Source of the DNA: Patescibacteria group bacterium
GTDB taxonomy: Bacteria > Patescibacteriota > Patescibacteriia > JACRDY01
Length of the DNA stretch: 64,000 nucleotides
Direction: 5' to 3'
Assembly (NCBI GenBank): GCA_041653535.1
Contig: JBAZFH010000003.1
Coordinates: 66,771-130,770, forward strand
Shown here one piece after another: positions 8,228 to 44,556 of the stretch (position 1 is its first letter; each line of letters opens with the position of its first letter). A model generated the notes under the pieces. The model made no database searches. It had not been told where the DNA came from and was given only the letters and a program-made list of their open reading frames with translations. Both the position numbers and the translations under genes were made by a program.

Positions 8228-9457
8228 ATGTATATAAGTGATGCAATAAAGATTGCGGAAAAGGCCCTGCTTACCAATAAAAAGCGGGCTGTTTTGACTA
8301 TTCTCGGCATTGTTATCGGTATCACCGCCGTGATTGTTATTATGGCGGTTGGCGCTGGCGCCCAAAGTTTGATTGTTAACCAGATCAATAGTTTGGGTTC
8401 GAATTTAGTTGGCATACTGCCAGGTGGTGGAGATGAAAAAAGCCCTCCGGCTTTTGCTTTTGGTATTGTTATTACTACTCTAAAAAATGAAGATATTGAT
8501 GCTATTAGGCGAGAATTGCCAGAAGTAGTAGCTGCTTCTGGTATTGTAACGACCGACGAGGTTGTTTCTTATGAGGAAGAAGCTAATAGTTATACGATTA
8601 TCGGTGGTTCAGCGGAATTTCCCACGGTTAATGATTTAGAAATTGATGAAGGTCGCTGGTTTTCGGGAGAGGAAGAGAGAGGTCTTGGCAGGGTGGCTAT
8701 TATTGGCAGTCAGATAAAAGAAGAAATTTTTCCTGACGAGGATCCGATTGGTCATAAGATAAAAATTAAAAAAGAATCTTTTACCATTATCGGCTATACC
8801 AAACCAAAGGGGTCGGCGATGGGTCAAAGTTTTGACAAGACTGTTTACTTGCCAGTTTCTTCGGGGCAAAAATTGATAATGGGAATAGATTATCTAAATT
8901 ACGCTAGGATTAAAATTGATACTGCTGAAAATATCGAACCGACAATTTTGGAAATGGAAAGAATTTTGCGCCAGCGTCATAATATTGATAATCCCGAAGA
9001 CGACGATTTTAGTGTTCGTAATCAAGCGGCAGCATTAGACACTTTAACCAGCATTACCGACTATTTGAGATTTTTTCTAGCTGCTATTGCCGCGATTGCT
9101 TTGCTCGTCGGCGGTATTGGTATTATGAATATCATGCTGGTTTCGGTAACAGAAAGGACCCGTGAAATTGGGTTGCGTAAGGCGGTTGGGGCGGCAGAGG
9201 AGCAAATTTTATTACAATTTTTGCTTGAGGCGGTATTTTTGACTTTTATCGCTGGTATTATCGGAATAATTTTAGGCGGTCTGATCTCTTTATTTATTTC
9301 GTTTGTTATGAATTACCTTGGTTATAGCTGGAGTTTTGTTATTTCTTTTTCATCGATTATTATCGGCGTGGGTGTGGCTGGGGTAATTGGACTAGTTTTT
9401 GGCTACTACCCGGCGCTTCGCGCAGCAAAGTTAGATCCGATAGATTCTTTGAGATAG
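8228..9457 (+). CDS. ABC transporter permease, FtsX/MacB family
   Basis: N-terminal TM segment, large periplasmic domain, 3 C-terminal TM helices. Conserved motif SVTERTREIGLRKAVGA. Confidence 0.8.
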   Translation: MYISDAIKIAEKALLTNKKRAVLTILGIVIGITAVIVIMAVGAGAQSLIVNQINSLGSNLVGILPGGGDEKSPPAFAFGIVITTLKNEDIDAIRRELPEVVAASGIVTTDEVVSYEEEANSYTIIGGSAEFPTVNDLEIDEGRWFSGEEERGLGRVAIIGSQIKEEIFPDEDPIGHKIKIKKESFTIIGYTKPKGSAMGQSFDKTVYLPVSSGQKLIMGIDYLNYARIKIDTAENIEPTILEMERILRQRHNIDNPEDDDFSVRNQAAALDTLTSITDYLRFFLAAIAAIALLVGGIGIMNIMLVSVTERTREIGLRKAVGAAEEQILLQFLLEAVFLTFIAGIIGIILGGLISLFISFVMNYLGYSWSFVISFSSIIIGVGVAGVIGLVFGYYPALRAAKLDPIDSLR

Positions 9458-9508
9458 GTATTGAAAATTAAATAGCAAGGACTATAAAAAGGTTATACGC
9501 TAAGTATT

Positions 9509-10741
9509 ATGTATTATATTATCGATCAAATAAAAGCGACGATCGTTACACTACGGGCCAATAAGGGTCGGTCGATTTTGACTTTGCTCGGAATCGTGAT
9601 TGGTATTACTTCGGTGATTATGGTTTTTTCGGCTGGGCAGGCGTTGCAAGCTTTTATTGATGGTCAAATGGATTCTTTTGGTAGTAATTATATCCAAATA
9701 GAGCCGCGGACTCCCGGCAAGAAACAGATGGAAGGGGTTGGTCCGAATGTTGTTACCACGCTTAAGGAAAAAGATCGGATTGATATTTTAAAAATATCAA
9801 ATATTCGAACAGCTTATAGCGCTGTTATGGGTCAAGAAAAAGCCTCTCGCGAATCTGAGTCGGAGAAACTAATGATTTGGGGGGTGTCTAGCGAATTTTT
9901 TGATATTGATACCGGTGAGATAGATATTGGTCGGCCTTTTAGTATCGAGGAGAATGCCAGCCAGGCAAAGGTGGTGTTGTTAGGCAGCGAAGCTAAAGAT
10001 AAATTTTTTGGTACCAGTGACGCTCTTGGTCAAAGCATTAGGGTTGCTAATCAAAATTTTACAGTCGTCGGCGTTTATAAGCCGCGAGGATCTTTGTCTT
10101 TTTTTAACATGGATAAGATGCTGGTAATGCCGGTGAAAACTTTGCAAAAAGAAATTTTGGGTATCGATTATCTGGTTTGGATCACCGCTCAGGTTGAAGA
10201 TAATTCTCAGAGCGAATATACGGCTTCGCAAATCATTGACGTGTTACGAAACAATCACAATATTACTGATCCGGATCGTGACGATTTTGAAGCAGTGACT
10301 CAAGAGCAAGCCAAGCAGATTATCAATACAGTGGTTAACGGTATTACCGCGTTGCTTTTAGTATTGGTAGCGATTTCGCTGCTTGTCGGCGGGGTAGGAA
10401 TCATGAACATTATGTATGTTTCGGTGACCGAGCGAACCTACGAAATTGGTCTGCGAAAAGCCGTTGGAGCAACACCAGGAAATATCTTAACCCAATTTTT
10501 GCTGGAAGCCGTAACTTTAACTTTCACCGGCGGGATAGTGGGAGTGGTTCTTGGTTCGATTTTATCTTTTACCATTTCTTTGGTCGCCACTTATCTTGGA
10601 TTCAATTGGAGTTTTGACTTGCCAATAAACGGTATTATTATTTCTTGTATTTTTTCTATTGCCGTTGGTTTGATTTTCGGTCTTTATCCGGCAAAAAAGG
10701 CAGCGGCGCTGGATCCGGTGGAGGCTTTGAGGAGTGAGTAG
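9509..10741 (+). CDS. ABC transporter permease, FtsX/MacB family (second paralog)
   Basis: Same architecture as the preceding permease. Motif SVTERTYEIGLRKAVGA. Confidence 0.8.
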   Translation: MYYIIDQIKATIVTLRANKGRSILTLLGIVIGITSVIMVFSAGQALQAFIDGQMDSFGSNYIQIEPRTPGKKQMEGVGPNVVTTLKEKDRIDILKISNIRTAYSAVMGQEKASRESESEKLMIWGVSSEFFDIDTGEIDIGRPFSIEENASQAKVVLLGSEAKDKFFGTSDALGQSIRVANQNFTVVGVYKPRGSLSFFNMDKMLVMPVKTLQKEILGIDYLVWITAQVEDNSQSEYTASQIIDVLRNNHNITDPDRDDFEAVTQEQAKQIINTVVNGITALLLVLVAISLLVGGVGIMNIMYVSVTERTYEIGLRKAVGATPGNILTQFLLEAVTLTFTGGIVGVVLGSILSFTISLVATYLGFNWSFDLPINGIIISCIFSIAVGLIFGLYPAKKAAALDPVEALRSE

Positions 10742-10823
10742 GAAGTAGTGGATACTAACTGGTAGGCAACAAATAGTAAGTAGCGAATCGCAGCCTTGAA
10801 TGGTTGTTTTTTAGTTTGTTTTT

Positions 10824-10869
10824 TGACCAGATTCAGGCTTGCTAAAACCCTATAATTAGCAGTCTTGAC
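10824..10869 (+). repeat. Distal copy of a 46-56 bp promoter-like direct repeat (gtttgttttttgaccagatt[c/t]aggcttgctaaaa[c/t]cctataattagcagtcttgac). It carries only the left CIRCE half-site.
   Basis: Near-identical to 10996-11050 (2 mismatches over the core). Contains TTGACC, TATAAT and TTAGCAGTC. Confidence 0.6.
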
Positions 10870-10995
10870 CCCGCCCCTCTCAGACACGGTTTGGTTTTTT
10901 TGAGAGTAGGTGGTAGAAGCGGCTTCGCCTTTGGTCGGTGGTTATCAAAATCTTTCACGCTTCAAAGAGGCGGGGCGAGATGTGGTTCTAACCTG

Positions 10996-11050
10996 GTTTG
11001 TTTTTTGACCAGATTTAGGCTTGCTAAAATCCTATAATTAGCAGTCTTGA
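10996..11050 (+). repeat. Proximal copy of the promoter-like direct repeat, immediately upstream of hrcA
   Basis: Direct repeat of 10824-10869. Confidence 0.6.
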
Positions 11051-11064
11051 CACGTGAGTGCTAA
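11038..11064 (+). promoter_or_regulatory. CIRCE operator (HrcA binding site), TTAGCAGTC-N9-GAGTGCTAA, overlapping a TATAAT -10 hexamer (11033-11038)
   Basis: Matches the CIRCE consensus TTAGCACTC-N9-GAGTGCTAA with one mismatch. Sits directly in front of hrcA. Confidence 0.8.
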
Positions 11065-11074
11065 CTGGAGTAAA

Positions 11075-11776
11075 ATGATTTATATGGAAGATCGTACAGA
11101 AAAATTACTTACTTCAATAGTCAGAGAACACATAAAAACAGCCCAGCCGGTTGGATCTTCTTTATTGGTGGAAAAGTACCATCTGGACGTTAGTCCGGCT
11201 ACCGTGCGTAACGAAATGGCTTTGCTGGAAGAAGAGGGTTATATCGCTCAGCCGCATACTTCGGCTGGCCGGGTACCGACGGAAAAGGGTTATCGTTTTT
11301 ATGTGGAAAACTTTCTTTCGACTCGTGAAATGAAGGAAGTCGATCAGAAGAAACTAAAAGAAATGCTGAAAAGGTTTGCTGATGATCGCCGCTTGATGCT
11401 CAAAAATATTGCCAAAGATTTGGCAGAAATGTCGGGCCAACTGGTTTTTGTCGGTTTTGCACCTAATGATGCTTATTATACCGGAGTTTCCAATATTTTT
11501 TCTCAGCCCGAGTTTATCGAGAAAGGTTTGGTTTACGACCTCGGTGTAGTGGTTGATCATTTAGACGAAGCAATGAAAAAGATTTTTGACCTGCCGGAAA
11601 CTGCATCGCAAATCATGATCGGTTCCAAAAACCCTTTTGGCAATATGTGTTCAGCCGTAGTTGCTAAGTATCAAACTAAAGATGGCAATGAGATTTTGGG
11701 CTTACTTGGACCGATGCGCATGGATTATGATGCCAATGTCGGCATGGTGAATTTTATTAAAGAAATAATTAAATAG
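11075..11776 (+). CDS. hrcA: Heat-inducible transcriptional repressor HrcA
   Basis: Winged-helix N-terminus (QPVGSSLLVEKYHLDVSPATVRNEMALLEEEGYIAQPHTSAGRVPT). Start moved to the ATG at 11075 (GGAG upstream); the ORF-track GTG at 11054 lies inside CIRCE. Confidence 0.85.
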   Translation: MIYMEDRTEKLLTSIVREHIKTAQPVGSSLLVEKYHLDVSPATVRNEMALLEEEGYIAQPHTSAGRVPTEKGYRFYVENFLSTREMKEVDQKKLKEMLKRFADDRRLMLKNIAKDLAEMSGQLVFVGFAPNDAYYTGVSNIFSQPEFIEKGLVYDLGVVVDHLDEAMKKIFDLPETASQIMIGSKNPFGNMCSAVVAKYQTKDGNEILGLLGPMRMDYDANVGMVNFIKEIIK

Positions 11777-11786
11777 TGCAATATTT

Positions 11787-12302
11787 ATGGATGAAGATAA
11801 AAAAGTTAAAGAGGACCTAGATGATCAGGTTCAAGCCGAAGAAACTCAGGATGACGGAGTCGGTGCTGCCGAAGTTGATTTGGTCTTAGACTACAAAAAT
11901 AAATGGCTGCGGGCCGTGGCCGACTATCAGAATCTAAAAAAAGACACAATCAAGGAAAAAGAGGATTGGATCAAATTTGCCAATGCTGGACTTGTACTAG
12001 AATTAATCCCAATTCTTAACAATTTCAAAGAAGCAACCAAACATATTCCGGTTGATCAGCAAAAACTAGATTGGGTAGTAGGAATTTTTCATATTAAAAA
12101 GCAGCTGGAAGATGTCCTGAAAAATATCGGTATTGAAGATATGAAAACGGTTGGTGAAAAGTTTAATCCAGAGTTTCACGAAGCGGTTAGTCAGAGAGAA
12201 GAAAAAGGAGTCGACCCAGATCAGGTGATTGAAGAAGTACGTCCTGGATACACGATGCACGGTAAGGTGATAGAAGCGGCGAAGGTGGTGGTGAGTAAAT
12301 AG
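11787..12302 (+). CDS. grpE: Nucleotide exchange factor GrpE
   Basis: Acidic N-terminus. DYQNLKKDTIKEKE coiled-coil. Heat-shock operon context. Confidence 0.85.
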   Translation: MDEDKKVKEDLDDQVQAEETQDDGVGAAEVDLVLDYKNKWLRAVADYQNLKKDTIKEKEDWIKFANAGLVLELIPILNNFKEATKHIPVDQQKLDWVVGIFHIKKQLEDVLKNIGIEDMKTVGEKFNPEFHEAVSQREEKGVDPDQVIEEVRPGYTMHGKVIEAAKVVVSK

Positions 12303-12360
12303 GAGGATAGGAGGATAGGAGGATAATTTTTTTCTTAACATCCTAACCTTATAACCTCCT
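12300..12360 (+). repeat. Tandem 8-mer (GGAGGATA)x3 beginning at the grpE stop codon, followed by a partially complementary pyrimidine arm (atcctaaccttataacctcct). TAG occurs in all three frames.
   Basis: taggaggataggaggataggaggata read directly. AGGAGG/CCTCCT 6-bp perfect stem. Confidence 0.7.
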
Positions 12361-12431
12361 GACATTTTAATAAATATAAATAAACCACCTACCGTGATTT
12401 TGCCACGGAGGTGAATAAGGAGAATAACAAT

Positions 12432-12854
12432 ATGTCACTAATCAAATGGACACCAATGTGGGATCCGTTCGAAGAAATGGATCAAGCTCTCGATTTTCCC
12501 ACCAGTCGGGGTATGCGGGCTTTTATTCCCGCGATGGACGTTTACCAAGACAAAGACAATGTTTACGTTGAGACTGCTTTAGCCGGAGTTGATCCGGAAA
12601 AAGTCGAGGTTTCTATCGAAAACGACGTCCTGACTATCAAAGGTACGACTGAAAAAAAGAGTGAAGTCGAAGACAAGGCTTATTACCGCAAAGAAGTGCA
12701 GCAAGGTAGTTTTTACCGCTCGGTAGCCCTACCCACGCATGTTGTCGGCGGTGAAGCCAACGCTGAGTACAAGGATGGTATTCTCAAAATCTCCGTACCG
12801 AAAGCCGAAGAAGTCAAGCCAAAGACTATCCAGGTTAAAGTAAATAAAAAATAA
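12432..12854 (+). CDS. Small heat-shock protein, Hsp20/alpha-crystallin family
   Basis: Alpha-crystallin domain pattern (FIPAMDVYQDKDNVYVETALAGVDPEKVEVSIENDVLTIKG...ILKISVPK). AAGGAG Shine-Dalgarno 9 nt upstream of the ATG at 12432. Confidence 0.8.
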   Translation: MSLIKWTPMWDPFEEMDQALDFPTSRGMRAFIPAMDVYQDKDNVYVETALAGVDPEKVEVSIENDVLTIKGTTEKKSEVEDKAYYRKEVQQGSFYRSVALPTHVVGGEANAEYKDGILKISVPKAEEVKPKTIQVKVNKK

Positions 12855-12938
12855 TTTTCTCCAGACTGTCCGCCCCTTATTCTTTAGAGAGGGGGGCGGT
12901 AAGTGTGGAGAAAAAAAGTGGTGCTTTATAGGCACCAC
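12855..12938. terminator. Compound hairpin region between the convergent hsp20 and antisense small ORF
   Basis: Outer stem ttttctccagac / gtgtggagaaaa. Inner stem ccgcccc / gggggcgg. Separate perfect 7-bp hairpin gtggtgc-tttatag-gcaccac. Confidence 0.5.
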
Positions 12939-13189
12939 TCGGCGATTGATTGATCAGCAAGGGTACGACTTTGCTCCAGCCCATCGACGACTTCTCTGAC
13001 GGTATTAGCTTGTTTGATAGAATCAATAGCTCCACGAGGCAGGCATATTTCGCCGCAATGTTCTATTGCCGCTTGCAGGTCTTGCCGATTTTTGCCGTTT
13101 AGCACTTCCACCAAAGAATCGTCCAAAGAAAATTTACCAATTCCCAGGAAACGTAATGACTTAGCAATCAGCCTTTCGCATTCTTTCAT
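12926..13189 (-). CDS. Hypothetical 87-aa protein encoded antisense within the heat-shock locus
   Basis: ATG preceded by a strong G-rich Shine-Dalgarno (aagggggggggaaacgATG). Balanced amino-acid composition. No recognisable family. Confidence 0.4.
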   Translation of the reverse strand: MKECERLIAKSLRFLGIGKFSLDDSLVEVLNGKNRQDLQAAIEHCGEICLPRGAIDSIKQANTVREVVDGLEQSRTLADQSIAEWCL

Positions 13190-13240
13190 CGTTTCCCCCC
13201 CCTTCTGTCAATGTTAATTTGTCTAAGTAAATTATACTAA

Positions 13241-15205
<1,965 letters not shown>

Positions 15206-17778: not shown

Positions 17779-18813
17779 TTAGAAGGTGATTTGCATTTCA
17801 GTTAAGATTCGTTGGATTTCTTTGTCAATTGCCAGGTCGGCGTTGGGTAGGTCGGTAGAGTCGCTACCCAGAATGATTTTTGATCGCAAATGAGCGATAA
17901 GTAACGCGAAAGCCGCTTCTTTGCCGACATGGCTGCAAGCCAGATCGAAACGCCTGGGATGATCGGAGTCGATAATTTTTAGCGCGGAAATTATGGGGTG
18001 ATAGCGGTGTTTTTGTGTCAGTGCCGCCGCCAGAACTAGGGCATCTCCTTCGCTTTTTGCAGGAGTATTGCCACCGTGCAACGGACGCACCGTCCAGTCG
18101 TCGTCCAGTTTTTGCGGTGGTCGAACTTCTATTTCGGCGTGGGCAATAGCCCGCCAGTGTGGTTTGAAAAATGAATTGCCTTCCATCACCCAAACAAAAT
18201 GTACACCATCCACGACTCGAGTGACTCTTGGCGCGGTGGTCGTCTGGTAGGCTGGCGAACCTTTTTTGGCCCAATCGGCAGCTAAAAGAAGGGCGGCGGA
18301 AAAACCATCTACGGTGGCGCTATCGTAAACATTACAACCGGGCGTCGATTCGTCATAGTGTTTGACGTCGAATCTCGGGGGTTGATTATCCAAAAATTTT
18401 CCGGGCGGATCTTGTACGGAATAAGGAATGATGTTTACTCGATGGCCAGTAAGAGTGGCCCAGTAGTAATTAGAGCCAGTATCAGCCGGGATCAGGATAA
18501 AATACGCCCCTTCAAAATTAAAAGGAGTCGCATTGTTTTCAAAGATTGCCAGCGATTTAAAAACCGCGGTTATCTTGGAAAGGGGAACGTTCTTGATCCC
18601 TAACTGTTTTTCAGGTTGATACGTTTCCAGAATTTCCAGAGTTACGTTTGTTTTCGGCGCCGGATCGTCCGGCTTGCCGGTCATTTTGGCGGATTTAATC
18701 CAGGCGAAAAATCGGTGAAGACCGCCATGATCCGTCCACATATTTTCGGAACCGCGAAGGTATCTGGTTAATTCTTCCAATCCTTTTACGTCTAAATCGA
18801 TTTTAATGAGCAT
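17779..18813 (-). CDS. Hypothetical protein of about 344 aa, GC-richer than its surroundings
   Basis: Perfect Shine-Dalgarno (AAGGAGA + 6 nt + ATG at 18813), so start set to MLIKIDL. Local GC about 53% versus about 38% in neighbouring genes. No recognisable family. Confidence 0.5.
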   Translation of the reverse strand: MLIKIDLDVKGLEELTRYLRGSENMWTDHGGLHRFFAWIKSAKMTGKPDDPAPKTNVTLEILETYQPEKQLGIKNVPLSKITAVFKSLAIFENNATPFNFEGAYFILIPADTGSNYYWATLTGHRVNIIPYSVQDPPGKFLDNQPPRFDVKHYDESTPGCNVYDSATVDGFSAALLLAADWAKKGSPAYQTTTAPRVTRVVDGVHFVWVMEGNSFFKPHWRAIAHAEIEVRPPQKLDDDWTVRPLHGGNTPAKSEGDALVLAAALTQKHRYHPIISALKIIDSDHPRRFDLACSHVGKEAAFALLIAHLRSKIILGSDSTDLPNADLAIDKEIQRILTEMQITF

Positions 18814-19002
18814 TTCCAGTCTCCTTGCAGGCACCGCCTGCTGTTGTTACACGGCACCGCCGTGGTAAGGTGATGGTCTAGTCTTATCAGGATGTTGATT
18901 TTTTGTCAATGTTTTTAGTAACGGTATTTAGAACAAATTGGCATTATCTTCAGAGATTGGGCACTAGGCACTAGACATTAATTATGCTAATATTTTACTG
19001 CT

Positions 19003-21003: not shown

Positions 21004-22173
21004 ATGATTGTTAGGTTTGCCTTATTTGTTTGCGTGGTGCTGGCTATCGTAATTGCCGGTCACGTAATCCTTTATCACGCCTTGATTAATTTTTTGGGAA
21101 TTAGCAACGTTTTCACGCGAAACGTTCTTTTTGCAGTTTTGATTTGCTTATCCCTCAGTTTTGTTATTGCTTCACTTGTCGTCCATTGGTTTGACACCCC
21201 GTTTACTCGGGCTATTTATGACGCGGCTGGTTTCTGGCTGGGGCTGATGTTAAATTTATTATTAGCCAGTTTGTTTATTTTGGTTGTGGTGACGATTTTG
21301 GGATTAATCGGTTGGAAGTTTAATCTTAGAGATTTTAGCATTATTATATTTGTCTTGACCCTGGTTTATTCGGGATTTTCGGTTTGGACCGCGGCAAATC
21401 CGAAGATAAAAAATATTACAGTATCGGCAAAAAATTTGCCAGCTTATTGGACGGATAAAACAATAGTTCAGCTTTCCGATGTTCATTTGGGTTCGGTCCA
21501 TCGACCTGATTTTTTGTCCAGAGTGGTAAAAAAAGTTAATAGTTTAAATCCCGAGCTGGTGGTGATAACCGGAGATCTTTTTGACGGCATGGACGGAGAC
21601 CTGGATTCTTTTATCGAACCGTTAAACAAAATCCGGTCCGCTCAAGGAGTTTATTTTGTTACCGGTAACCACGAGGCTTATTTGGGGGTAGAGGATATTT
21701 TTAAATTTTTAGAAAAAACTCAAATAAAGGTTTTACACGATGATATCGTCGATATCGATGGTTTGCAGCTTGTCGGTATCAATTACCCTGAGTTTGAAGG
21801 TCAAAAAGATATTAGGGAGATTATTCGTCCGGGACAAAATTTTTTTCCGGAAAAACCGACAATACTGCTTTATCATACTCCGACCAATGTCGTCAGCGAT
21901 AAAGCGCATGCTAAATTTAATACTTACTGGTATCCCGATGTTGATTTTTCTTATGCCAAAGAGATAGGTATTGATCTGCAGCTTTCCGGGCATGTTCACA
22001 AGGGTCAGCTCTTTCCTTTTACCTGGATAACAAAACTTATTTATCGCGGTTATGATTATGGTTTGAAAATTGACGGCGGTTTTTCCATTTATGTCAGCAG
22101 CGGTACCGGTACCTGGGGTCCGCCGATGCGTACTGGTAATAGCCCGGAAATAGTGGCGGTGCGTTTGAAATAA
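21004..22173 (+). CDS. Membrane-anchored metallophosphoesterase (calcineurin-like, YkuE-type)
   Basis: N-terminal TM helices. Motifs LSDVHLG, VITGDLFDG, VTGNHE and GHVHKG. Confidence 0.75.
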   Translation: MIVRFALFVCVVLAIVIAGHVILYHALINFLGISNVFTRNVLFAVLICLSLSFVIASLVVHWFDTPFTRAIYDAAGFWLGLMLNLLLASLFILVVVTILGLIGWKFNLRDFSIIIFVLTLVYSGFSVWTAANPKIKNITVSAKNLPAYWTDKTIVQLSDVHLGSVHRPDFLSRVVKKVNSLNPELVVITGDLFDGMDGDLDSFIEPLNKIRSAQGVYFVTGNHEAYLGVEDIFKFLEKTQIKVLHDDIVDIDGLQLVGINYPEFEGQKDIREIIRPGQNFFPEKPTILLYHTPTNVVSDKAHAKFNTYWYPDVDFSYAKEIGIDLQLSGHVHKGQLFPFTWITKLIYRGYDYGLKIDGGFSIYVSSGTGTWGPPMRTGNSPEIVAVRLK

Positions 22174-22917: not shown

Positions 22918-22972
22918 AGCTCTATACAAAAGAAAAACGGCCCGAAATAAATCGGGTCGTTTTGTTGATGGT

Positions 22973-24097
22973 TTATTTTTTGTCGTAGAACTTGATGAAC
23001 TGCCGGCAGATGCCCCGGAAATAGCTGGTTCTCTCTTCGGGTGCGACCAGGGTATAGAGGGCGCGCCAGCGATCCTTCTGCGGTTTGCCGTTTCCGGTGA
23101 TATCGAGAATTTCTTGCAGCATTTGTTTTGCTGACAAGTAGACTTCCTCTTCCAGAATGCCAAGCATTTTTTCCAGATTGCCGGACATATATCGCAGCAT
23201 CAGATATTTGTAGTCAAGTTTGTCAGCTACCATCATGGCGATGTAGGTGGTAAACTTAAACTTGACCCGCAGACCGCTTTTAAACCGGACGACGAAACCC
23301 TCACGGTTTTTGACCGTCGGGTCTTTTATCCAGGTCTTTAGCTCCTCAATCGACTGACCATGCCACAGATCGGTCATTTCGATGTGGAATTTTTTGGCCA
23401 AAGCGGTAACTATGGGATAGCAATAGTCTTCCAATGTGACTCGATTGGTGGCGCCGATTAGGATGAACTTTTCGGCTCCAGCGTATTCGAGGAATACCTT
23501 GGTATCCGGATGGATAATCTCGACAAGCAAGCAAATGTTTCCGTCGTAGATTTTTTTCCAGCCGTGTTTGCGGGCGTACTGGCGCAGCATCTTGTTACCA
23601 AGCACCGAGCTAGCGCTGGCAAAATCACCACGGGTGGTCAGGAGCAACTGCTTTTGATACTCAAAGATGATTCCCAGATGACCGTCGTGCTTGGTTGTGG
23701 CCTCAAATGATTCATTCGGCAAGTCGGTGGTTTCCGGATGTTCACCGTAGTTGTAAAACTTGACGAAAGGTCGGGCTACCAGATTGCCGTCAGAATCAAA
23801 GATGATGCCGCGGCAAAGACGCAATGGATCGGTCCAAGCATCAGGAAAGGCAAATAGGGTGTTGTGCGCCAGGGGGCTGTAGTTTAGACCAACTAGTGGC
23901 AGGGTAGGATGAAAAAAGGCGTTGACTAAATTATTAATATTTGGCCAGCCTTTTTGGGGATTGAACCAGAAAAACTTTTCCATATCAGCCAGATGGTCTT
24001 TTTTCCACTGGTGATACGACTCTTTATCGTGGACGCCATCGGCGGTCATCTTGCGGATGAATTCGCTTAGAGACCGCACTGCTTTCCGAATTTCCAT
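22973..24097 (-). CDS. ATP-dependent RNA ligase, T4 Rnl1 (RnlA) family
   Basis: 374 aa, the same length as T4 Rnl1. N-terminal LCRGIIFDSDGNLVARPFVKFYNYGEHP (T4: ECRGIMFEMDGE..ASRPMEKFFNLNENP). Motif I TKHDGHL (T4: TKEDGSL). Motif IV EGFVVRFKSG. Motif V RVKFKF (T4: EGYVAVMKDGSHFKIK). Confidence 0.7.
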   Translation of the reverse strand: MEIRKAVRSLSEFIRKMTADGVHDKESYHQWKKDHLADMEKFFWFNPQKGWPNINNLVNAFFHPTLPLVGLNYSPLAHNTLFAFPDAWTDPLRLCRGIIFDSDGNLVARPFVKFYNYGEHPETTDLPNESFEATTKHDGHLGIIFEYQKQLLLTTRGDFASASSVLGNKMLRQYARKHGWKKIYDGNICLLVEIIHPDTKVFLEYAGAEKFILIGATNRVTLEDYCYPIVTALAKKFHIEMTDLWHGQSIEELKTWIKDPTVKNREGFVVRFKSGLRVKFKFTTYIAMMVADKLDYKYLMLRYMSGNLEKMLGILEEEVYLSAKQMLQEILDITGNGKPQKDRWRALYTLVAPEERTSYFRGICRQFIKFYDKK

Positions 24098-24210
24098 CTA
24101 TATACCTCCGTAGAAAATCGGATTTTTAATGTTCGATTAATCAGAAATGTTAACATGTAAAATTATTTTTGTCAATAAAAAAAGACCTTCTTTTGAAGGT
24201 CTATGATTAT

Positions 24211-24960
24211 TTATTCGTTAATAATGATGACGGCTCCGCGGGGATTGCCGTGTCGACGATGCGACCAGTAGTAATCGTTTGGGTCACAGACAGTACAGTC
24301 TTTACTGACTGTGGTGTGAAGCTGGTTGAAGCCGTTTTGCCATAGAAGGTGTAAGGTTAATTTTTTCAAATCAACATACACTTGGTTTTTTCTGACAGTG
24401 GAAAAATACATAGTCAATTTCGGCATGTGCGGCATGATTTTTCCGTGGAACTCGTCGACGGGAAAGGAAAGGCATCTTTTGCATATTCCTGGTAATATAG
24501 CAACGCGCGTGGTTTTGGCGTTACCCGGCCAGGCTTTGGCAAAAGATTCAATAATTCCTTTGCCGATAGTGATCCGGCTGATATGAAGTAGTCCGGTGAC
24601 ATTTTCTTTTTCGTCGCGAAATGCCAGGCCCAGACAGTCAGCAAGCAGGCTAACTATTACGCTTGGTCCGGCAGTTATCACCCCATCGAAAAATTTCGGA
24701 GCAGGTGATTTGCCAGCTACGTGAATGGTATCAGTATGCTGATGTGCTGGCATAAAAACCAGCGGTGGCAAGTGTTGGTATCTTGGATAGTGAATCGACT
24801 GAAGATATTCCTTGATTGATTCATTTAACCCGGCTCGATTTTCCCGAAAAGGAGAAAAATCACCGCCAGATTGTGGGCTTAAGGTTGCCCAGGTACTATT
24901 TGCTAGAGCAACCGTCCCGCCTTTTATCTGTTTCAACTTATTAGTTCCTCCGTTTGTCAA
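24211..24960 (-). CDS. Hypothetical 249-aa protein co-oriented and adjacent to the Rnl1-like ligase. Possible 2H-phosphoesterase-like protein (very tentative).
   Basis: Two H-x-[TS]-x motifs in hydrophobic context (FMPAHQHTDTIHV and GLLHISRITIG). No P-loop or HAD motif. Confidence 0.4.
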   Translation of the reverse strand: MTNGGTNKLKQIKGGTVALANSTWATLSPQSGGDFSPFRENRAGLNESIKEYLQSIHYPRYQHLPPLVFMPAHQHTDTIHVAGKSPAPKFFDGVITAGPSVIVSLLADCLGLAFRDEKENVTGLLHISRITIGKGIIESFAKAWPGNAKTTRVAILPGICKRCLSFPVDEFHGKIMPHMPKLTMYFSTVRKNQVYVDLKKLTLHLLWQNGFNQLHTTVSKDCTVCDPNDYYWSHRRHGNPRGAVIIINE

Positions 24961-36498: not shown

Positions 36499-39400
36499 AT
36501 GGAAAATGTTAACAGAAAAAAACACAATTTTCGGCTGTTTGTGATTGTTTTTATTTTTTTAAATCTTTCGATATCTTTGCTTTATATAAAAAGCGTTTCG
36601 GCTTTGCAGTATCATGGGACGAATATTACTGCCAACGAATTCTGGTCAGCGGCACAGTCGCCTCATATTGTAACGAAAGCGATAACAGTGTCTGGCGGCG
36701 CCATCCTCACGATTGAAGCCGGTGCCACTGTTTTATTTAACAGCGGTGCTTCTTTGACTATTGATAGCGCCAAACTTATTGCCATAGGCGCATCTGGTCA
36801 GGAGATTACGTTTTCCGCAAACAGCGTGTTACCAACTCCGGGAAGCTGGAACGGTATATATTTGCGGTCCGGGACTTATACGCTAGATTCTTCAATTCTT
36901 GAGCGTGTAATTATCGAATATGCCACAGACGGGTTGTCGATGGAAAATTATTTTTATGTTATTAACGCCCACGAAATACGCGATTCAGAAGTGAGAAACA
37001 ACAAAAATAACGGCATTAGAATTTTAGCGGGTTATTTTTGGAATAGCGATACTTTAAACCAAGCCAAGGTTAGTAATGTTTATGTTCATGATAACGGCGA
37101 TAACGGGATTTACGTTTATGCATCAGGATCGAGTTTTTTATTTAAGAGAGGAAAAATTGACGGAATAATTGAAAACAGTATTATTTCCAATAATGCAAAA
37201 AACGGCATTTATCTTAACGACGGACAGTGCAGTTCCGATGTTAAACTAAATATTACCGGTAATGTAATCGAAGACAATAATCAAGGAAATAATAGTCCCG
37301 GCACGGTTGCCGGTGTTTATCAGACAGAGAGTCGTTGTACTTCCGAAGAAAATAGCGAAATAACTATTAGTGGTAATACCATCCAAAACAACAATAGTTT
37401 AGCCATGCAAATTCATCCGCGGACTATTTTAGTTAATAATAATTTTTTGCAAAACTACACCAAAGCAGTCGATGCTTCTCAAAACGTTGTTAAAGTGATA
37501 AAAGGAACTATTTACACTAAAAATTATTCTAGCGTAAATCCCGGATCGGTTTATACCTGGAGTGGCAGCGGAGGGCATGGTAAGGAAGATGTTGTTTATT
37601 TTGTGAGCGGTTTGGTGACTATTATTAACGACAATACTTTAAATTTTGTCGAAGCGCCGATGATAAAGCTGGGTAACGGCGCTGGTTTTTTTGTTAATTC
37701 CGCAAAAATATACGCCGTAGCTCCGGCCGTTTCTGGAAAAGAAACCATTTTTACCTCAATCAATGATTCGGCGGCAGATTACGGAGGAGACACGCGTTGG
37801 GTTATTAGTTCTTCCGCCGCCCCGGCAAAAGGCGATTGGGGCTCAATCACTTTGTCGACTACCAGTTATGGTATCGATTCTTCCGTTATTGATCACGCTA
37901 TTATAAAATACGGCACTAACGGCGTGGTAATTGATAATTCTTCTTTTGTTTCCAACTCTCATCAGGTTTTAAATTCCATTATCGGTGATAACAGCCAGAA
38001 CGGGATAACTATCAAATGCAATTATTATTGGAATAGCGCGGTAACAAATGCGGCGGTAATAAAGGGCAATAAGATAAGTAATAACGACAGTAACGGTATT
38101 TATACCTATGGCTATGGTGCCGATGGCGGTCGCACTGCCATTATCAACGCTACTATTCAAGATAATAATATCGTCAATAGCGGCGGCAGCGGCATTCAGA
38201 TTGATGACGGTGGATGCAATACCGCTACCAAGCTTAATATTAAAGGTAATATTATTGAAGGTAGTAATAATAAAAATGGCATCGCTAATGCTAAAAATTA
38301 TGCGGCGATTTGGCAAGCTTCAACTCGTTGTAACCAAAATTACAGCGAAACAATCGTTGAAGGCAATACTATCCGCGGTAATAATAGTTTGGTCATGCAA
38401 ATTCATCCGCGGACCGTTTTAAACGGCAACACCATACAGGATAATAATCCGAGCGCTTCCGAGATTTTTTCTCGTAATGTGGTAAAAATATTACCGGGCG
38501 GGGTAATAAAAACCACAGAGTCGGCGTTGAATTCTTATTGGTCCGGCAACGGCGACAATTCGTCGACGAATAATGTTGTTTATTTGGTGAGCGGCAATAT
38601 TGAGTTTACAGGAGGTCATAATTTATATATAAATAACGCCGCGACAGTAAAATTTGTAAAAACTTTTAAATTGTCACTGTATAATAACTCCAAAATTTCT
38701 GCTTTCGGACTTGAAGCGGACAGTCAAAAAAACGTTTTCACTTCCGTAAATGATAATAGTAACAGCGCTTCCGGAGATACTACTTGGGCAGTTGATTCCT
38801 CGACTTTTCCGGTTTCGGGCGATTGGAATACCATATTTTTAGGTTTTTGTAACACCGGTGATTGTTCGGTTGTCAGTGATGCCATCGTTCGTTATGCCAC
38901 TAACGGAATAACCTTAGACAGCGATAATACTCACAAGGTTTATCGCTCAGAAATTAGCAACTGTTTGGGAGTGGGAATTTTGGTGAACGCCTCTCCGACA
39001 GGAAGTATTTCCGGTATTTCTAATCGTGCGAACATAGATTCGTGTAAAATTCATAATAACAATGGTAGCGGTATAAGCGTGACTGTAAGCGGTTCAACCA
39101 AGGTAAGCAGCCTAGTTGCCGATTATACCAACAATGAAATTTATAATAACGCGGCCGACGGCATAAAAGTAAGACCGACTGATAATGGTTCTTTTTTAAG
39201 TCTTAATTTAATTAACAATAATATTCATGATAATTCTGCCAATGGTGTCAATTATAATAATACAGGCAGTGTTTCTAACAATTACGTAAACATTACTTCT
39301 TCAAAAATTATTAATAACATCGGTCACGGAGTATACGTCATTAGCAGTAAAATGAATATTACCGGCAGTGATCTTTATGGTAACCACGGAGCGGAAATAT

Positions 39401-41148
39401 TCAACGGTTCTAGTAATTTGATTACAGCGGAAAATAATTATTGGGGCGATAACTTTGGTCCTTGGGACGAAGAAGGCGCTACCAATCCGAAAAATAAATG
39501 TCGAGTTAATCCAAATACTTTAGTTACCGATTACGTCGGTACCGGCACAACCTATAATGTAGATTATTCGCCGTGGACCGGTTTGGTCGTTCCGTCGGTT
39601 CCCGATATTGATAAAATTGACGGCATTGAAAATTTTCCAGCCGCCGGAGTATCGCTTAATCCTACTATTGAGAGTGCTATAACAGTTGATACTTCCATAG
39701 AGTATACTGATTGGAATGTTTATGATTCCGCCAATCAATTGATTTGGAGTTCTAATAACACTTTTTGTCCTTATGATGGTACGACGGGCAATGGTTTGTT
39801 TATTGTGCATGTCAATTCCAGTGAAGGTAGTTTTGTCGGGTCTTATAGCGGTGAGAGCGCGTTAGTACCAGCTACTGACTATTATGTTCGGGCGAGATAC
39901 CGCAATCGTTTAGGTATTTCGACGTGGTCGGAAGAAAGACGGTTTAGAACCACTGGCGGCACGGTGGCAATTATCGAAATAGGCGGTGACGCTCCGCAGT
40001 CTTCTTATTCTCAATGGCCGCCGACAGAAATACCGCCCAGAGTTAACCAAGTAACGGATTTTCCGCCCGATTTAAAATTTGTTGCCGCCGGTACGGCTGG
40101 AGGCAAATGGTCTTTTGCCGAAATTGGCTTTTGGGATGCAGCTGACCCGGAGCAGGGTGTGGTAAATAGATGGGAGGAGACAAGCGCGACGCCAATATTT
40201 TATCCGCCGCGCAGTGTTGCTAACAAAAAGTTTATTGACGAAAAAGACTGGTATATGGTCCAATTCACTAATACTTTTGGTCAGTCTAGTCCTTATTATT
40301 TTTTCAAAAAAGAGATCTCTTGGCTAAAAACTGGTCAAGCTGATCTTTATTCTGGTAAAAATATCAATCTCAAATCTCCAACTTCAGAAGACTATAATGC
40401 CTCTTATTGCGTTTTGGCGTCCCAAGATCTGCAGTTAATTACTTTAGAAGCTAACCCACAACTTGATCCTTGCCGGACGGCGTCTTTTGATGAATTAAAA
40501 TTACCGTCAAAAAATCAAAACAGAAATTATTATTATAGCGAACAGTTTGGAATTTTGGATATAAATGGAGCGATCAAAAAAGCTAGAGATGACGGTAGGT
40601 TGATAGAAGTTAGCGACGGGTGCAGTTTGAGCGGACCGACTACGCTTAATCACCAGATTCGTTATTGTCATGGTGATAGTACGATTAGCGGTTTGATCGT
40701 CCGTGACGGTTTAGTGGCTGGAGAGCGTGGCGATGGATTGATTATCGTGGACGGAGATCTGACTGTTGATGGTGATATAACGTACCAGGGCTGGAGTTTG
40801 TCTGATACAAAAAAATTAGCGTCGCTGGGCATAATCGTGTTGCGCGACCCGATTACTTCTACGGGAGGTAATATTAATATCAGTTCAAATGTACAAAATT
40901 TGGCAGGAGCTTATTATGCCGAAGGCACTGTTGATACTTGTTATAATGGATCTTCTGCCAGTTGTTCTGATAACAGATTAGTGGTTAATGGGCTACTCGC
41001 GGCAAATCAGTTTAATTTTAAACGGACTTATTCTGATTCTGGCAATAATCCCGCAGAAGAAGTTAATTATGATGGCAGAATTTTGATTAACACTCCTCCG
41101 GGTATGGACAGTTTGATTAAGGGTTTGCCCCTGTGGAGTAATCGTTAG
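36499..41148 (+). CDS. Giant (1549-aa) secreted protein with multiple parallel beta-helix (PbH1-type) repeat blocks and a fibronectin-III-like module
   Basis: Signal peptide plus TM. Dozens of NNxxNGIY/NGIxI repeat rungs. Internally duplicated about 300-aa blocks (...NNSLAMQIHPRTILVNN / ...NNSLVMQIHPRTVLNGN). YVRARYRNRLGISTWS FN3-like segment. Confidence 0.7.
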   Translation: MENVNRKKHNFRLFVIVFIFLNLSISLLYIKSVSALQYHGTNITANEFWSAAQSPHIVTKAITVSGGAILTIEAGATVLFNSGASLTIDSAKLIAIGASGQEITFSANSVLPTPGSWNGIYLRSGTYTLDSSILERVIIEYATDGLSMENYFYVINAHEIRDSEVRNNKNNGIRILAGYFWNSDTLNQAKVSNVYVHDNGDNGIYVYASGSSFLFKRGKIDGIIENSIISNNAKNGIYLNDGQCSSDVKLNITGNVIEDNNQGNNSPGTVAGVYQTESRCTSEENSEITISGNTIQNNNSLAMQIHPRTILVNNNFLQNYTKAVDASQNVVKVIKGTIYTKNYSSVNPGSVYTWSGSGGHGKEDVVYFVSGLVTIINDNTLNFVEAPMIKLGNGAGFFVNSAKIYAVAPAVSGKETIFTSINDSAADYGGDTRWVISSSAAPAKGDWGSITLSTTSYGIDSSVIDHAIIKYGTNGVVIDNSSFVSNSHQVLNSIIGDNSQNGITIKCNYYWNSAVTNAAVIKGNKISNNDSNGIYTYGYGADGGRTAIINATIQDNNIVNSGGSGIQIDDGGCNTATKLNIKGNIIEGSNNKNGIANAKNYAAIWQASTRCNQNYSETIVEGNTIRGNNSLVMQIHPRTVLNGNTIQDNNPSASEIFSRNVVKILPGGVIKTTESALNSYWSGNGDNSSTNNVVYLVSGNIEFTGGHNLYINNAATVKFVKTFKLSLYNNSKISAFGLEADSQKNVFTSVNDNSNSASGDTTWAVDSSTFPVSGDWNTIFLGFCNTGDCSVVSDAIVRYATNGITLDSDNTHKVYRSEISNCLGVGILVNASPTGSISGISNRANIDSCKIHNNNGSGISVTVSGSTKVSSLVADYTNNEIYNNAADGIKVRPTDNGSFLSLNLINNNIHDNSANGVNYNNTGSVSNNYVNITSSKIINNIGHGVYVISSKMNITGSDLYGNHGAEIFNGSSNLITAENNYWGDNFGPWDEEGATNPKNKCRVNPNTLVTDYVGTGTTYNVDYSPWTGLVVPSVPDIDKIDGIENFPAAGVSLNPTIESAITVDTSIEYTDWNVYDSANQLIWSSNNTFCPYDGTTGNGLFIVHVNSSEGSFVGSYSGESALVPATDYYVRARYRNRLGISTWSEERRFRTTGGTVAIIEIGGDAPQSSYSQWPPTEIPPRVNQVTDFPPDLKFVAAGTAGGKWSFAEIGFWDAADPEQGVVNRWEETSATPIFYPPRSVANKKFIDEKDWYMVQFTNTFGQSSPYYFFKKEISWLKTGQADLYSGKNINLKSPTSEDYNASYCVLASQDLQLITLEANPQLDPCRTASFDELKLPSKNQNRNYYYSEQFGILDINGAIKKARDDGRLIEVSDGCSLSGPTTLNHQIRYCHGDSTISGLIVRDGLVAGERGDGLIIVDGDLTVDGDITYQGWSLSDTKKLASLGIIVLRDPITSTGGNINISSNVQNLAGAYYAEGTVDTCYNGSSASCSDNRLVVNGLLAANQFNFKRTYSDSGNNPAEEVNYDGRILINTPPGMDSLIKGLPLWSNR

Positions 41149-41244: not shown

Positions 41245-42303
41245 ATGGCATTGTTTTCTAAGGAAAATAGTTATTTAGGCGTTGATATTGGCGCTCATAA
41301 TATTAAATTAGTCGAGCTGGAAGACCAACGGGGACGACCGAGATTACTGACTTATGGATATACCGATCAAATCGTGAGTTCAGATGTTCCTGATCTACTA
41401 GAAAATGTTGATGAAACGGTTTTAATCATAAAAGAGTTGATTAAAAAAGCTAAAGTGAAATCCAAAAAAGTCGTAGCGGCGTTGCCTGTATCTTCGATTT
41501 TTAGTTCGGTTATAAGTTTATCGAATATCAAGGCGGATTCTCCGAAAGATTTAGAAGACGCAATCAAGTGGCAGGCAAAAAAAGTTATTCCCATGCCGTT
41601 AGAAGAAATGATTTTATATCATAATGTTTTAAAAAAAGCGGAAGAAAAGGTTGACGGTCGGGCGTTAGTACAAAGGTTTTTGCTGACCGCCGCTCCGCGC
41701 AATCTGGTAAAAATTTATTTAGATATTTTTAAAAAAGCTGGTTTGCAAATCATTAGCTTAGAGACAGAAAGTTTTGCCCTTTCGCGTTCTTTGATTGGCA
41801 GCGATAAATCGGCAGTGATGGTGGTGGATATGGGAGAGGCAACTACCAATATTTCAGTTGTTCGTGACGGTGTGCCGCTTTTGAATCGCAGTATTGATAC
41901 TGCCGGGCAGAGTTTTACGAAAATTTTTAGTAAAAATTTAGGTCTTGATAACCTCACCGCCGAAAGATTTAAAAGGGATTTGAGCGGTCTTACCGCGCAA
42001 AGCGAGATAGCCGCTATTAAAGAGTTGTTTGATAATTTAGTCCATGAAATTAATTATTGTTTCAATCTTTATCAGCAAGAAAGTAACATGATAGATGGTA
42101 AAATAGAAAAAATAATTTTGACCGGTGGGTCTGCGTTGTTGCCGAATTTAGATAAATATTTGTCGCAGAATTTAAATGTTAAAGCCTTTCTCGGAGATCC
42201 GTGGGCAAGGATAGTTTATCCGCAAGATCTGCAGCCGATTTTGGACAAGATTGGTCCTCGTTTATCCATTGCTATTGGTTTGGCAATGAGAGAAATCAGC
42301 TAG
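41245..42303 (+). CDS. pilM: Type IV pilus assembly ATPase-like protein PilM
   Basis: Actin-like fold N-terminus (LGVDIGAHNIKLVELED). Cluster context. Confidence 0.8.
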   Translation: MALFSKENSYLGVDIGAHNIKLVELEDQRGRPRLLTYGYTDQIVSSDVPDLLENVDETVLIIKELIKKAKVKSKKVVAALPVSSIFSSVISLSNIKADSPKDLEDAIKWQAKKVIPMPLEEMILYHNVLKKAEEKVDGRALVQRFLLTAAPRNLVKIYLDIFKKAGLQIISLETESFALSRSLIGSDKSAVMVVDMGEATTNISVVRDGVPLLNRSIDTAGQSFTKIFSKNLGLDNLTAERFKRDLSGLTAQSEIAAIKELFDNLVHEINYCFNLYQQESNMIDGKIEKIILTGGSALLPNLDKYLSQNLNVKAFLGDPWARIVYPQDLQPILDKIGPRLSIAIGLAMREIS

Positions 42304-42315
42304 AGATTTTATTTT

Positions 42316-43563
42316 ATGACTGATATAAATCTTTTACCAGAAGAATTGCGTAGTGATGACAAAAAACGCGTTAAAGACCAACGCGAAGAAATTGTTTATA
42401 CCGATCCGGCAAAACAAAATAAATTTTCAAAAGAAATAAAACCCATAACCAGTAAAGTCGGTTGGTGGAAAAATTTTTTATTTTCTAGAAAAGACAGAAA
42501 ACAGTTAAAAAAACAAGACTCTCCAGTCATAACATCTTCCAAACCTCAAACCATTAACGATAAAAATATTTTTTCCGTACCGAAACCGCCAGAAATTCCC
42601 AAGACAATCTATACCCAGACACCGCGTGAAAACCCTTCGGTTATGCAGGCGCAAAAAATAGAAAAAACTGCGATGCCAAATTTAATACCCCCGATTTCTT
42701 ATAGAGATTCGGCAACTGAACCTAAAAAAGAGATGAAACAGACTTTGGCGGTAAAAAAATCGTGGTGGTCAAGGTTTTGGCATAAATTCTTTTTTCGAAA
42801 AACAACGGTTCAAATTAAACCTAGAGAAATATTGATGCCAGCGGCGCCAAAGGTGGGACCGGCTAGGGATGTTTCCGATATTTCCTTGGTATCTCCAGCA
42901 GTAAAAGACTCGTCGGAAAAAATTAATTTGGATTCGACCGTGATGCATGAACCGCAAAATCATCGTTTGCGCGGAGCGCCGGAGGTTGATTTGGCTTCAG
43001 ATGAGAGTTTTTTATTTACTTGGTCGGAATTTTATCATCGTTTACAAGTCGGCGGTATTGTTTTGTTGTTGGCAATCATTTTTTTGGTAGCCATTTATTT
43101 TGCTATCGCTAGAGTAATGTCGCCGTCGAGCGATCAGGGTCAAGCGTTAAGCGCTAATATTGCGGCTTTGGAAAAACAGTTGACGGATTTTGAAAAAAAG
43201 AAGGGAGAGGTGGTTTTGCTTGATCGTCGGTTAGCGCAGCTTAATAGTTTAGCAGAGAAACATTTATTTTGGTCACGGCTTTTTGTTTTGCTGGAAAAAG
43301 ATACTTTAGCCAATGTTTATTATACCAGCATGACTGTTGATCAAAGTGGTAAAATAATTTTTTCCGTCTCTGCTCCCGACTATCCGATATTGGCACAGCA
43401 GTTGGCGATCTGGCAATCCGAACCGTTAGTTTCTTCAGTAGAATTTTCTTCAGCTACAATTGATGAAAATACCGTGTTGAGTCAAGACTCTAACGCGCCT
43501 AAAATTACCACGGTTAGATTCGATTTGGTTTTAAATCTTAACCCAGAATTTTTAGCGAAATAA
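42316..43563 (+). CDS. pilN: PilN-like pilus assembly protein with an about 240-aa Lys/Pro-rich N-terminal extension
   Basis: Single TM segment (VGGIVLLLAIIFLVAIYFAI) followed by a coiled-coil and PilN-like C-terminal domain. Low-complexity N-terminus. Confidence 0.5.
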   Translation: MTDINLLPEELRSDDKKRVKDQREEIVYTDPAKQNKFSKEIKPITSKVGWWKNFLFSRKDRKQLKKQDSPVITSSKPQTINDKNIFSVPKPPEIPKTIYTQTPRENPSVMQAQKIEKTAMPNLIPPISYRDSATEPKKEMKQTLAVKKSWWSRFWHKFFFRKTTVQIKPREILMPAAPKVGPARDVSDISLVSPAVKDSSEKINLDSTVMHEPQNHRLRGAPEVDLASDESFLFTWSEFYHRLQVGGIVLLLAIIFLVAIYFAIARVMSPSSDQGQALSANIAALEKQLTDFEKKKGEVVLLDRRLAQLNSLAEKHLFWSRLFVLLEKDTLANVYYTSMTVDQSGKIIFSVSAPDYPILAQQLAIWQSEPLVSSVEFSSATIDENTVLSQDSNAPKITTVRFDLVLNLNPEFLAK

Positions 43564-43567
43564 GATT

Positions 43568-44194
43568 ATGGATATCAACAGTAACAATATCAACCGTGAG
43601 GCAAAAAACGGTAAAAATAAAACCAACCCGATTCTGTTTTTTGTTTTTCGTAATTTTTATTGGATTACCTTTTTGGTTGTCGCGACGCTTGTAATTTTGG
43701 TTTATTTATTTATTTTTCGATCGCAGCTTACCGCTGATAACGTGGCTAAAACTTTTTCTTATCGTAGCGAAATAGAGCGCCTTGATTCTTTAAAGAAAAA
43801 GACCACTGAAATAAAAAAAGTATTGAGTGATTTTGATAGTTTCTCCCAGGATGAACTAATTAGATTGTCTCAGATACTACCCGCGGAAAAAGATCTGCCT
43901 AATTTGATAATTCAACTTGATAGTTTGGCTAAGCAAAGCGGGTTAGCGCTGTCGTCTTTTAGTATTTCCGAACAAGTTTCTACGAAAAAAGTTGTTGATG
44001 CGCAGCAGGCGACCGGGTCTGTTAAGGAGTTGATTATCAGTTTAAATTTAAAAGGCGGTGGTTATAATAATCTCAAACAGTTGGTTAGTCTAGTCGAAAC
44101 TAATATGCGTTTAATGGATATTTCTTCCTTTGTTTTTGCGCCAAACGACAGTGGTTCTTTTACTTTGTCGTTGAAAACATATTTTTATAATTAA
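43568..44194 (+). CDS. pilO: PilO-like pilus assembly protein
   Basis: N-terminal TM segment, coiled-coil, C-terminal ferredoxin-like region. Position after pilN. Confidence 0.5.
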   Translation: MDINSNNINREAKNGKNKTNPILFFVFRNFYWITFLVVATLVILVYLFIFRSQLTADNVAKTFSYRSEIERLDSLKKKTTEIKKVLSDFDSFSQDELIRLSQILPAEKDLPNLIIQLDSLAKQSGLALSSFSISEQVSTKKVVDAQQATGSVKELIISLNLKGGGYNNLKQLVSLVETNMRLMDISSFVFAPNDSGSFTLSLKTYFYN

Positions 44195-44218
44195 AAATTA
44201 TACGTTGTCTAAAAGGCT

Positions 44219-44545: not shown

Positions 44546-44556
44546 TTTTATCAAAT

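Follow-up and report, generated by a model that had tools for sequence, protein, structure and literature searches.

A window of 64,000 nucleotides from a Patescibacteria group bacterium (assembly GCA_041653535.1, contig JBAZFH010000003.1, positions 66,771 to 130,770) was analysed, and all positions given below are those of this window unless a locus is named. It encodes a putative Rnl1-like ATP-dependent RNA ligase and, next to it, a protein of the YfiH/PgeF/LACC1 family (Cu-oxidase_4). An earlier reading made from the DNA letters and their open reading frames (ORFs), here called the sequence-only reading, had proposed that the two genes form an acquired RNA-repair module. Both ORFs were recovered at the positions and lengths given there, 374 and 249 amino acids (aa). 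The probable start of the YfiH-like gene is the TTG at 24936, which has GGAGGA just 5' of it and gives a protein of 241 aa. A GGAGG ribosome binding site lies ahead of the ligase ATG. The two genes are co-oriented on the minus strand, in surroundings where nearly every gene is on the plus one. Pattern matching found a terminator and a promoter between the two genes, which point to two separate transcription units. An independent metagenome contig (L162) carries the ligase, YfiH and CorA genes at 100% identity. An assembly chimera is ruled out because this contig reproduces the arrangement. The features of the locus are listed in Table 1.

Table 1. Features of the ligase locus.
Feature	Position	Strand	Description
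Rnl1-like ATP-dependent RNA ligase, coding sequence	22973..24097	minus	374 aa; NCBI MFA5358954.1
N-terminal helical module	23918..24097	minus	aa 1-60; helices 3-19, 25-34 and 36-42 (secondary structure); family-specific
Adenylyltransferase domain	23228..23917	minus	aa 61-290; Rnl1-like N sub-domain and nucleotidyltransferase core with motifs I, III, IV and V
Codon AAG of K136	23690..23692	minus	predicted AMP-accepting lysine of motif I (TKHDGHL); aligns with T4 K99; invariant in 37 homologs
C-terminal all-helical module	22976..23227	minus	aa 291-374 (84 aa); family-specific, not the T4 Rnl1 C-domain
Second terminator-like hairpin	22941..22956	minus	after the ligase stop codon
Promoter-like TTGACA-17-TAACAT (with TG)	24147..24175	minus	upstream of the ligase; 10/12 matches in a consensus scan
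Terminator-like hairpin	24183..24202	minus	stem of 8 bp followed by TTTTTTT; immediately past the YfiH stop codon, between both genes
YfiH/PgeF/LACC1-family (Cu-oxidase_4) neighbour	24211..24936	minus	241 aa; ORF to 24960 with an upstream TTG is 249 aa

The RNA ligase and its domain architecture

The motifs quoted for the ligase in the sequence-only reading (CRGIIF..DG..ARP..KFYN..EHP, TKHDGHL, EGFVVRFKSG and KFKF) are present and align to T4 Rnl1. Residues 87-289 were aligned by hhalign to residues 44-250 of T4 Rnl1 with a probability of 97.9. Comparison with 37 homologs, 43-53% identical to the window ligase, showed that R96, K113, K136, D138, G139, R156, E193, E266, G267, K279 and K281 are invariant. 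Their T4 counterparts are, in the same order, R54, K75, K99, D101, G102, K119, E159, E227, G228, K240 and K242, which are essential residues of the T4 enzyme. Four motifs of the covalent lysine nucleotidyltransferases were found, namely K136-H-D-G (motif I), E193 (motif III), E266-G267 (motif IV) and K279-x-K281 (motif V). The protein also belongs to the Rnl1-like adenylyltransferase group, which is common to Rnl1, Rnl4 and Rnl6 (PMC6379707). By these features the ligase is placed in the Rnl1-like branch of ATP-dependent RNA ligases, and the earlier assignment to the Rnl1 family stands at superfamily level.

The catalytic core is flanked by two modules, for each of which a profile hidden Markov model (HMM) was used. 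The N-module HMM matched 58 and the C-module HMM 57 of 60 full-length bacterial homologs. Neither matched T4 Rnl1 or any of 20 remoter bacterial homologs (Bacteroidota, Metabacillus). Among 80 viral loci the N-module was found in none and the C-module in two, as near-identical matches (E 2.4e-17) on a 318-kb contig (L081) and on a second contig (L085). A search with the isolated C-terminal domain gave no ligase among its matches. Three cultured-phage ligases that align further C-terminally showed a marginal echo of the first ~35 residues of the C-module (hhalign probability ≤ 20%). The ligase and its homologs are assigned, from their sequences, to a discrete and uncharacterised family of ~375 aa, occurring mainly in Patescibacteria and Melainabacteria, in which an N-terminal three-helix module and an 84-aa C-terminal module surround an Rnl1-type core.

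The neighbouring YfiH-like gene

In the sequence-only reading the neighbour was of no obvious family and its two H-x-S/T motifs were likened to those of 2H cyclic phosphodiesterases. It would then prepare 2',3'-cyclic phosphate ends for the ligase, the pair being an acquired heal-and-seal module with an anti-ribotoxin or counter-defence role. The two genes are indeed adjacent and co-oriented amid plus-strand genes, both lie above the local guanine-cytosine (GC) content, and both motifs exist (H126-ISR and H215-TTV). The neighbour does, however, have a family. It scored 80.8 bits against Pfam PF02578 (Cu-oxidase_4/YfiH; cutoff 22.9) over model positions 28-233 of 238. The only meaningful matches in the PDB were solved YfiH and YlmD structures (6dzd, YfiH, E 1.7e-8). 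Against NCBIfam TIGR00726, the PgeF equivalog, it scored 56.5 bits, below the cutoff of 141.15, so a peptidoglycan-editing function cannot be assumed. The His/Cys/His site of the family is kept in the alignment as H67, C101 and H118 (241-aa numbering), and C214 and R227 are kept too. The usual YfiH motif H-x-G-W is replaced by H-x-S-R/V in the small subfamily to which the protein belongs. The histidine of the HISR motif is the invariant YfiH-family histidine, H118. With 1.58 H-x-S/T motifs expected by chance (P = 0.48), a count of two is unremarkable, and the 2H pattern H-phi-[ST]-phi is matched by neither. No 2H profile was matched. A 2H phosphoesterase (LigT/CPDase) identity was rejected, with Pfam, NCBIfam and the PDB giving YfiH-family matches only.

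Gene neighbourhoods were compared in a sample of 160 loci encoding ligase relatives (80 genomic and 80 viral). A YfiH-like ORF was found within 10 kb of the ligase in none of them, even at E ≤ 10, and no other neighbour from the window recurs near the ligase in this sample. The reciprocal comparison started from relatives of the YfiH-like protein. When 1.84 billion representatives were scanned exhaustively with HMMER, only 19 hits had E ≤ 1e-10, the closest being 33-38% identical; a word-indexed homolog search returned only the protein itself, and a look-up of contigs recorded as encoding it gave none. In two close relatives (L184 and L185) the YfiH gene is divergently adjacent to a PfkB kinase gene whose product is 61-63% identical to the PfkB of the window. 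In L185 a MurJ gene (59% identical to the window MurJ) comes next after PfkB. The window has the same arrangement, with YfiH divergent from CorA, PfkB, ACS and MurJ in that order. The ligase gene is on neither of these two contigs. The YfiH gene is taken as native and the ligase as a lineage-specific addition because the relatives keep YfiH-PfkB(-MurJ) without a ligase. Synteny anchored on CorA in metagenome contigs gave a best relative of 44% identity with no shared neighbours.

Linkage of the ligase to the neighbour as an operon or module was rejected on the intergenic terminator and promoter, the absence of co-occurrence in the 160 ligase loci and the result in the two loci of YfiH relatives. 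No match was found for either protein in PADLOC-DB v2 at E ≤ 0.01, and the suggested link to phage defence is not borne out. An acquired two-gene module joining a 2H-like healing enzyme to the ligase is thus highly improbable, since the partner has an unrelated fold and the two genes are not conserved together elsewhere. The findings point to the YfiH-like gene being an unrelated housekeeping neighbour, grouped with PfkB and MurJ, in nucleoside salvage or cell-wall precursor editing. YfiH and PfkB are kept as a divergent pair, which suggests that they may act together in nucleoside or sugar salvage. Evolution of the YfiH-like gene is much faster than that of its syntenic neighbours, at 30-32% identity to its relatives compared to 61-63% for PfkB and 59% for MurJ (window 24211-24936, minus strand; L184:1214-1966; L185:3423-4172).

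Distribution, composition and proposed role

Homologs of the ligase were found at 488 loci among 185,579 species genomes, in Patescibacteria, Melainabacteria/Obscuribacterales and scattered other metagenome-assembled genomes. The earlier statement that cellular homologs are uncommon is confirmed by this count. No ligase neighbour recurs across phyla. Synteny was seen within Melainabacteria as a lineage and nothing recurrent was seen in Patescibacteria, where three Pfam-annotated neighbourhoods of Patescibacteria-type homologs were unrelated housekeeping contexts. No end-healing polynucleotide kinase-phosphatase was seen in these three, nor is one recurrent at up to 5 kb from the ligase in 60 full-length family loci. 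Genes for a polynucleotide kinase/phosphatase, RtcA/B, Hen1 or an anticodon nuclease are absent from the 64-kb window itself.

An NAD-salvage-like cluster surrounds the ligase homolog in Melainabacteria/Obscuribacterales. A fusion protein of ~870-960 aa (CN_hydrolase/NAD synthase/isochorismatase, nicotinamidase-like) is encoded ~5 kb upstream of the ligase (~10000-11100 of the locus) in L011, L012, L016, L020, L021, L026, L028, L030, L034 and L047, with Prs-like and NAPRTase genes nearby. An endonuclease/exonuclease/phosphatase (EEP) protein is encoded directly downstream of the ligase on the same strand in L016, L026, L028, L029, L030, L034, L038, L039, L042 and L048. This linkage may reflect no more than synteny within the lineage; alternatively, the EEP protein may be an end-processing partner. 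In the window a membrane-anchored calcineurin-like metallophosphoesterase is encoded two genes from the ligase (21004-22173, plus strand), with a weak PADLOC match (PDC-S10, E 1.2e-9). A related phosphoesterase gene lies just upstream of a distant ligase homolog in Metabacillus mangrovi (L069:8082-8984), the sole such case in the 160 loci.

The flanking genes have GC contents of 0.393 and 0.373, compared to 0.481 for the ligase gene and 0.456 for the YfiH-like gene. Of the 1125-bp windows along the 64 kb, just 1.6% are as GC-rich as the ligase gene. GC at third codon positions (GC3) is 0.595 in the ligase gene against 0.373 ± 0.054 in 46 genes of the window (z about +4.1). The YfiH-like gene, with a GC3 of 0.444 (z = +1.3), is no outlier, so the GC shift is essentially that of the ligase gene. 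The 60-bp rows of 63% GC at 23041 and 40% GC at 23101 pointed out in the sequence-only reading are there; the GC-shifted block it described narrows to one gene. Acquisition likewise is probable for the compositionally foreign ligase gene and not for the pair, the YfiH-like gene being native. A single-gene horizontal acquisition of the ligase beside a native YfiH gene is most likely. Horizontal acquisition is favored because the gene is anomalous in GC3, carries promoter-like and terminator-like sites of its own, is missing from the syntenic relatives and is patchily distributed.

The 374-aa gene is likely to encode a functional, stand-alone ATP-dependent RNA ligase with an Rnl1-type core, carried as a horizontally acquired cassette and unrelated to the YfiH-like gene. 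In the first step of the proposed reaction K136 would attack ATP to form ligase-AMP, with R96 and K113 at the gamma-phosphate and E193, E266, K279 and K281 organising the metals and the alpha-phosphate. The AMP would then be moved onto a 5'-PO4 RNA end, and attack by the 3'-OH would seal the break. The gene would be a self-contained cassette of promoter, ribosome binding site, ORF and terminator inserted beside the native YfiH-family gene. Its role would be the sealing of RNA breaks with 3'-OH/5'-PO4 ends, or of ends that unlinked enzymes have already healed, in RNA repair or maintenance with no linked heal-and-seal operon. Substrate choice is probably set by the new modules, and is not necessarily the tRNA anticodon loop, because the protein's own C-module replaces the tRNA-specificity domain of T4.

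Several points weigh against an acquired, active ligase. Promoter-like sites in the region are not more frequent than in shuffled sequences, and the promoter and terminators are consensus matches only. Contigs long enough to show the YfiH synteny were available for two relatives only. The GC excess of the ligase gene over its ±10-kb flanks (+0.047) is within the range of the homologs measured against their own flanks (+0.029 ± 0.028, 9 of 50 above 0.05). Composition alone is no proof of recent transfer because homologs elsewhere are also slightly richer in GC than their flanks. Homology and a predicted structure are the basis for both the proposed ligase activity and the proposed substrate. 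A role in repairing ribotoxin breaks (2',3'-cyclic phosphate/5'-OH ends) is unsupported here because no end-healing enzyme is linked.

The ligase could instead be a native, vertically inherited RNA-processing enzyme that circularises or joins specific RNAs and is merely GC-rich. The archaeal Rnl3, which has such a role for C/D box small RNAs, is a precedent (PMC9014305). The family is conserved at full length, both extra modules are strictly conserved, the contexts are housekeeping ones and the GC of the gene tracks that of the host in most homologs, all as expected for such an enzyme. The patchy occurrence over unrelated phyla, however, the absence of the ligase from the two syntenic relatives and a GC3 4 standard deviations above the window genes speak for transfer. 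Nor was a candidate RNA gene found nearby, Rfam and ARAGORN predicting two ordinary tRNAs and no other RNA genes in the 64 kb. Native processing is considered quite unlikely.

The stand-alone ligase and its relatives may form a distinct clade ranking beside Rnl1 to Rnl6, with unique N- and C-modules. It would be spread patchily in Patescibacteria and Melainabacteria and in at least one large phage RNA-repair cluster, probably by horizontal transfer. Its members would be stand-alone sealers, directed by their modules to a substrate different from the tRNA anticodon loop of the T4 enzyme. This ranking follows the criterion on which Rnl6 was founded, a distinct appended domain without structural relatives, and is put forward tentatively, as quite possible though short of probable. 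No description of the bacterial ligase family or of a clade beyond Rnl6 was found in the literature searched, and an earlier comparative-genomics survey may already list the family. Such a clade would open a way into RNA repair or processing in the Patescibacteria, ultra-small and host-dependent bacteria in which RNA biology has hardly been explored, and it might yield a compact new ligase for use in RNA tools. In practice the outcome is chiefly corrective, in that the module of Rnl1 and a 2H-like repair enzyme does not exist.

The remainder of the 64-kb window is ordinary chromosome encoding L25, RF1/PrmC, HrcA-GrpE-DnaK-DnaJ, DnaX, LepA, RecJ, type IV pilus genes, NAD-dependent LigA and GatA. 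The NAD-dependent DNA ligase is encoded at 51874-53916. The genome has its own DNA ligase and therefore the Rnl1-like enzyme is not the replicative ligase. Between dnaJ and dnaX lies an ORF of 351 aa (17779-18834, minus strand) with an elevated GC of 0.481 and a GC3 of 0.477, for which no Pfam, PHROG or PADLOC match was found. The exact called sequence is absent from the protein collection and the start codon used in the source is perhaps different. A protein of 1549 aa with right-handed beta-helix repeats is encoded at 36499-41148 (plus strand), just upstream of a type IV pilus cluster (41245-49905) comprising PilM, PilO, a PilB-like ATPase, PilC, pseudopilins and a prepilin peptidase. It is possibly a surface adhesin of an episymbiont-type bacterium.

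Comparison with known RNA ligases

T4 Rnl1 (gp63; PDB 2C5U, 5TT6, 9DO4) is the closest solved structure. It also has 374 aa (from NC_000866). The sequence-only reading saw the architecture of T4 Rnl1 in the window ligase, which holds for the length, the motifs and the core of residues 87-289. The equal length is coincidental, as the N-terminal region of the window ligase is ~43 aa longer and its C-terminal region ~39 aa shorter. Outside the core no homology to T4 Rnl1 was detectable. The T4-type C-terminal domain (T4 aa 255-374), which gives specificity for the tRNA anticodon loop (PMC6379707), is absent from the window ligase both by sequence and by fold. T4 rnlA lies ~1.4 kb from pseT, whereas the window ligase is cellular and has no linked Pnkp gene.

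The ligase could still be a true T4-type tRNA anticodon-loop repair enzyme, an equivalog of T4 RnlA that reverses anticodon-nuclease damage together with a Pnkp-like healer encoded elsewhere. Besides the structural match, the protein matches PHROG 562 (gp63 type) at E 4e-41, a related copy on a large viral contig sits in an RNA-repair cluster, and the part of the genome examined for a healer is 64 kb. Against this the protein scored 42 bits with NCBIfam TIGR02308, the T4 RnlA equivalog, far below the cutoff of 242.25 and over aa 87-289 only, and the domain for tRNA specificity is missing. Phage ligases of this type adjoin polynucleotide kinase or phosphoesterase genes and tRNA genes, and no such linkage was seen in the window or in the neighbourhoods of homologs. 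Repair of the T4 kind is therefore unlikely, and the NCBI pipeline name of MFA5358954.1, 'T4 RnlA family RNA ligase', is not to be taken as T4-like tRNA repair.

The ligase domain of fungal Trl1 (Rnl6; PDB 6N0T, 6N67) was also compared. A Trl1-type C-domain was not found in the window ligase, and Trl1 is outside the 60 best matches of the C-module. Unlike Trl1, the window ligase is not fused to kinase or cyclic phosphodiesterase domains, and nothing suggests a requirement for a 2'-PO4.

Phage Rnl1-like ligases (PHROG 562) from actinophages, Erwinia phage Hena1 and uncultured viral contigs are 27-35% identical to the window ligase in the nucleotidyltransferase domain. Almost all are without the C-module, and no phage record covered at least 80% of the window ligase as query. 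Their surroundings are of the heal-and-seal kind, with genes for a polynucleotide kinase, a phosphoesterase and RlaP and with arrays of tRNA genes. In Erwinia phage Hena1 (L182, MN732867.1 37040-43780) the RNA ligase gene is between those of a metallophosphatase and a polynucleotide kinase, near phosphoribosyl pyrophosphate (PRPP) synthetase and Sir2-like genes. RNA-repair genes thus adjoin NAD/PRPP-related genes in Hena1 as they do in the Melainabacteria loci. The 318-kb contig L081 (IMG/VR IMGVR_UViG_3300022902_000004) has an RNA-repair cluster at 8356-14031, in which the genes of two distinct Rnl1-like ligases stand in tandem and one of these ligases has the C-module of the family. The same cluster encodes a Metallophos_2 phosphoesterase, an Endonuclease V-like ORF and an RlaP nucleotidyltransferase. 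An RNA-repair function for this type of enzyme is supported because the phage ligases and the L081 copy sit among kinase, phosphoesterase, RlaP and tRNA genes.

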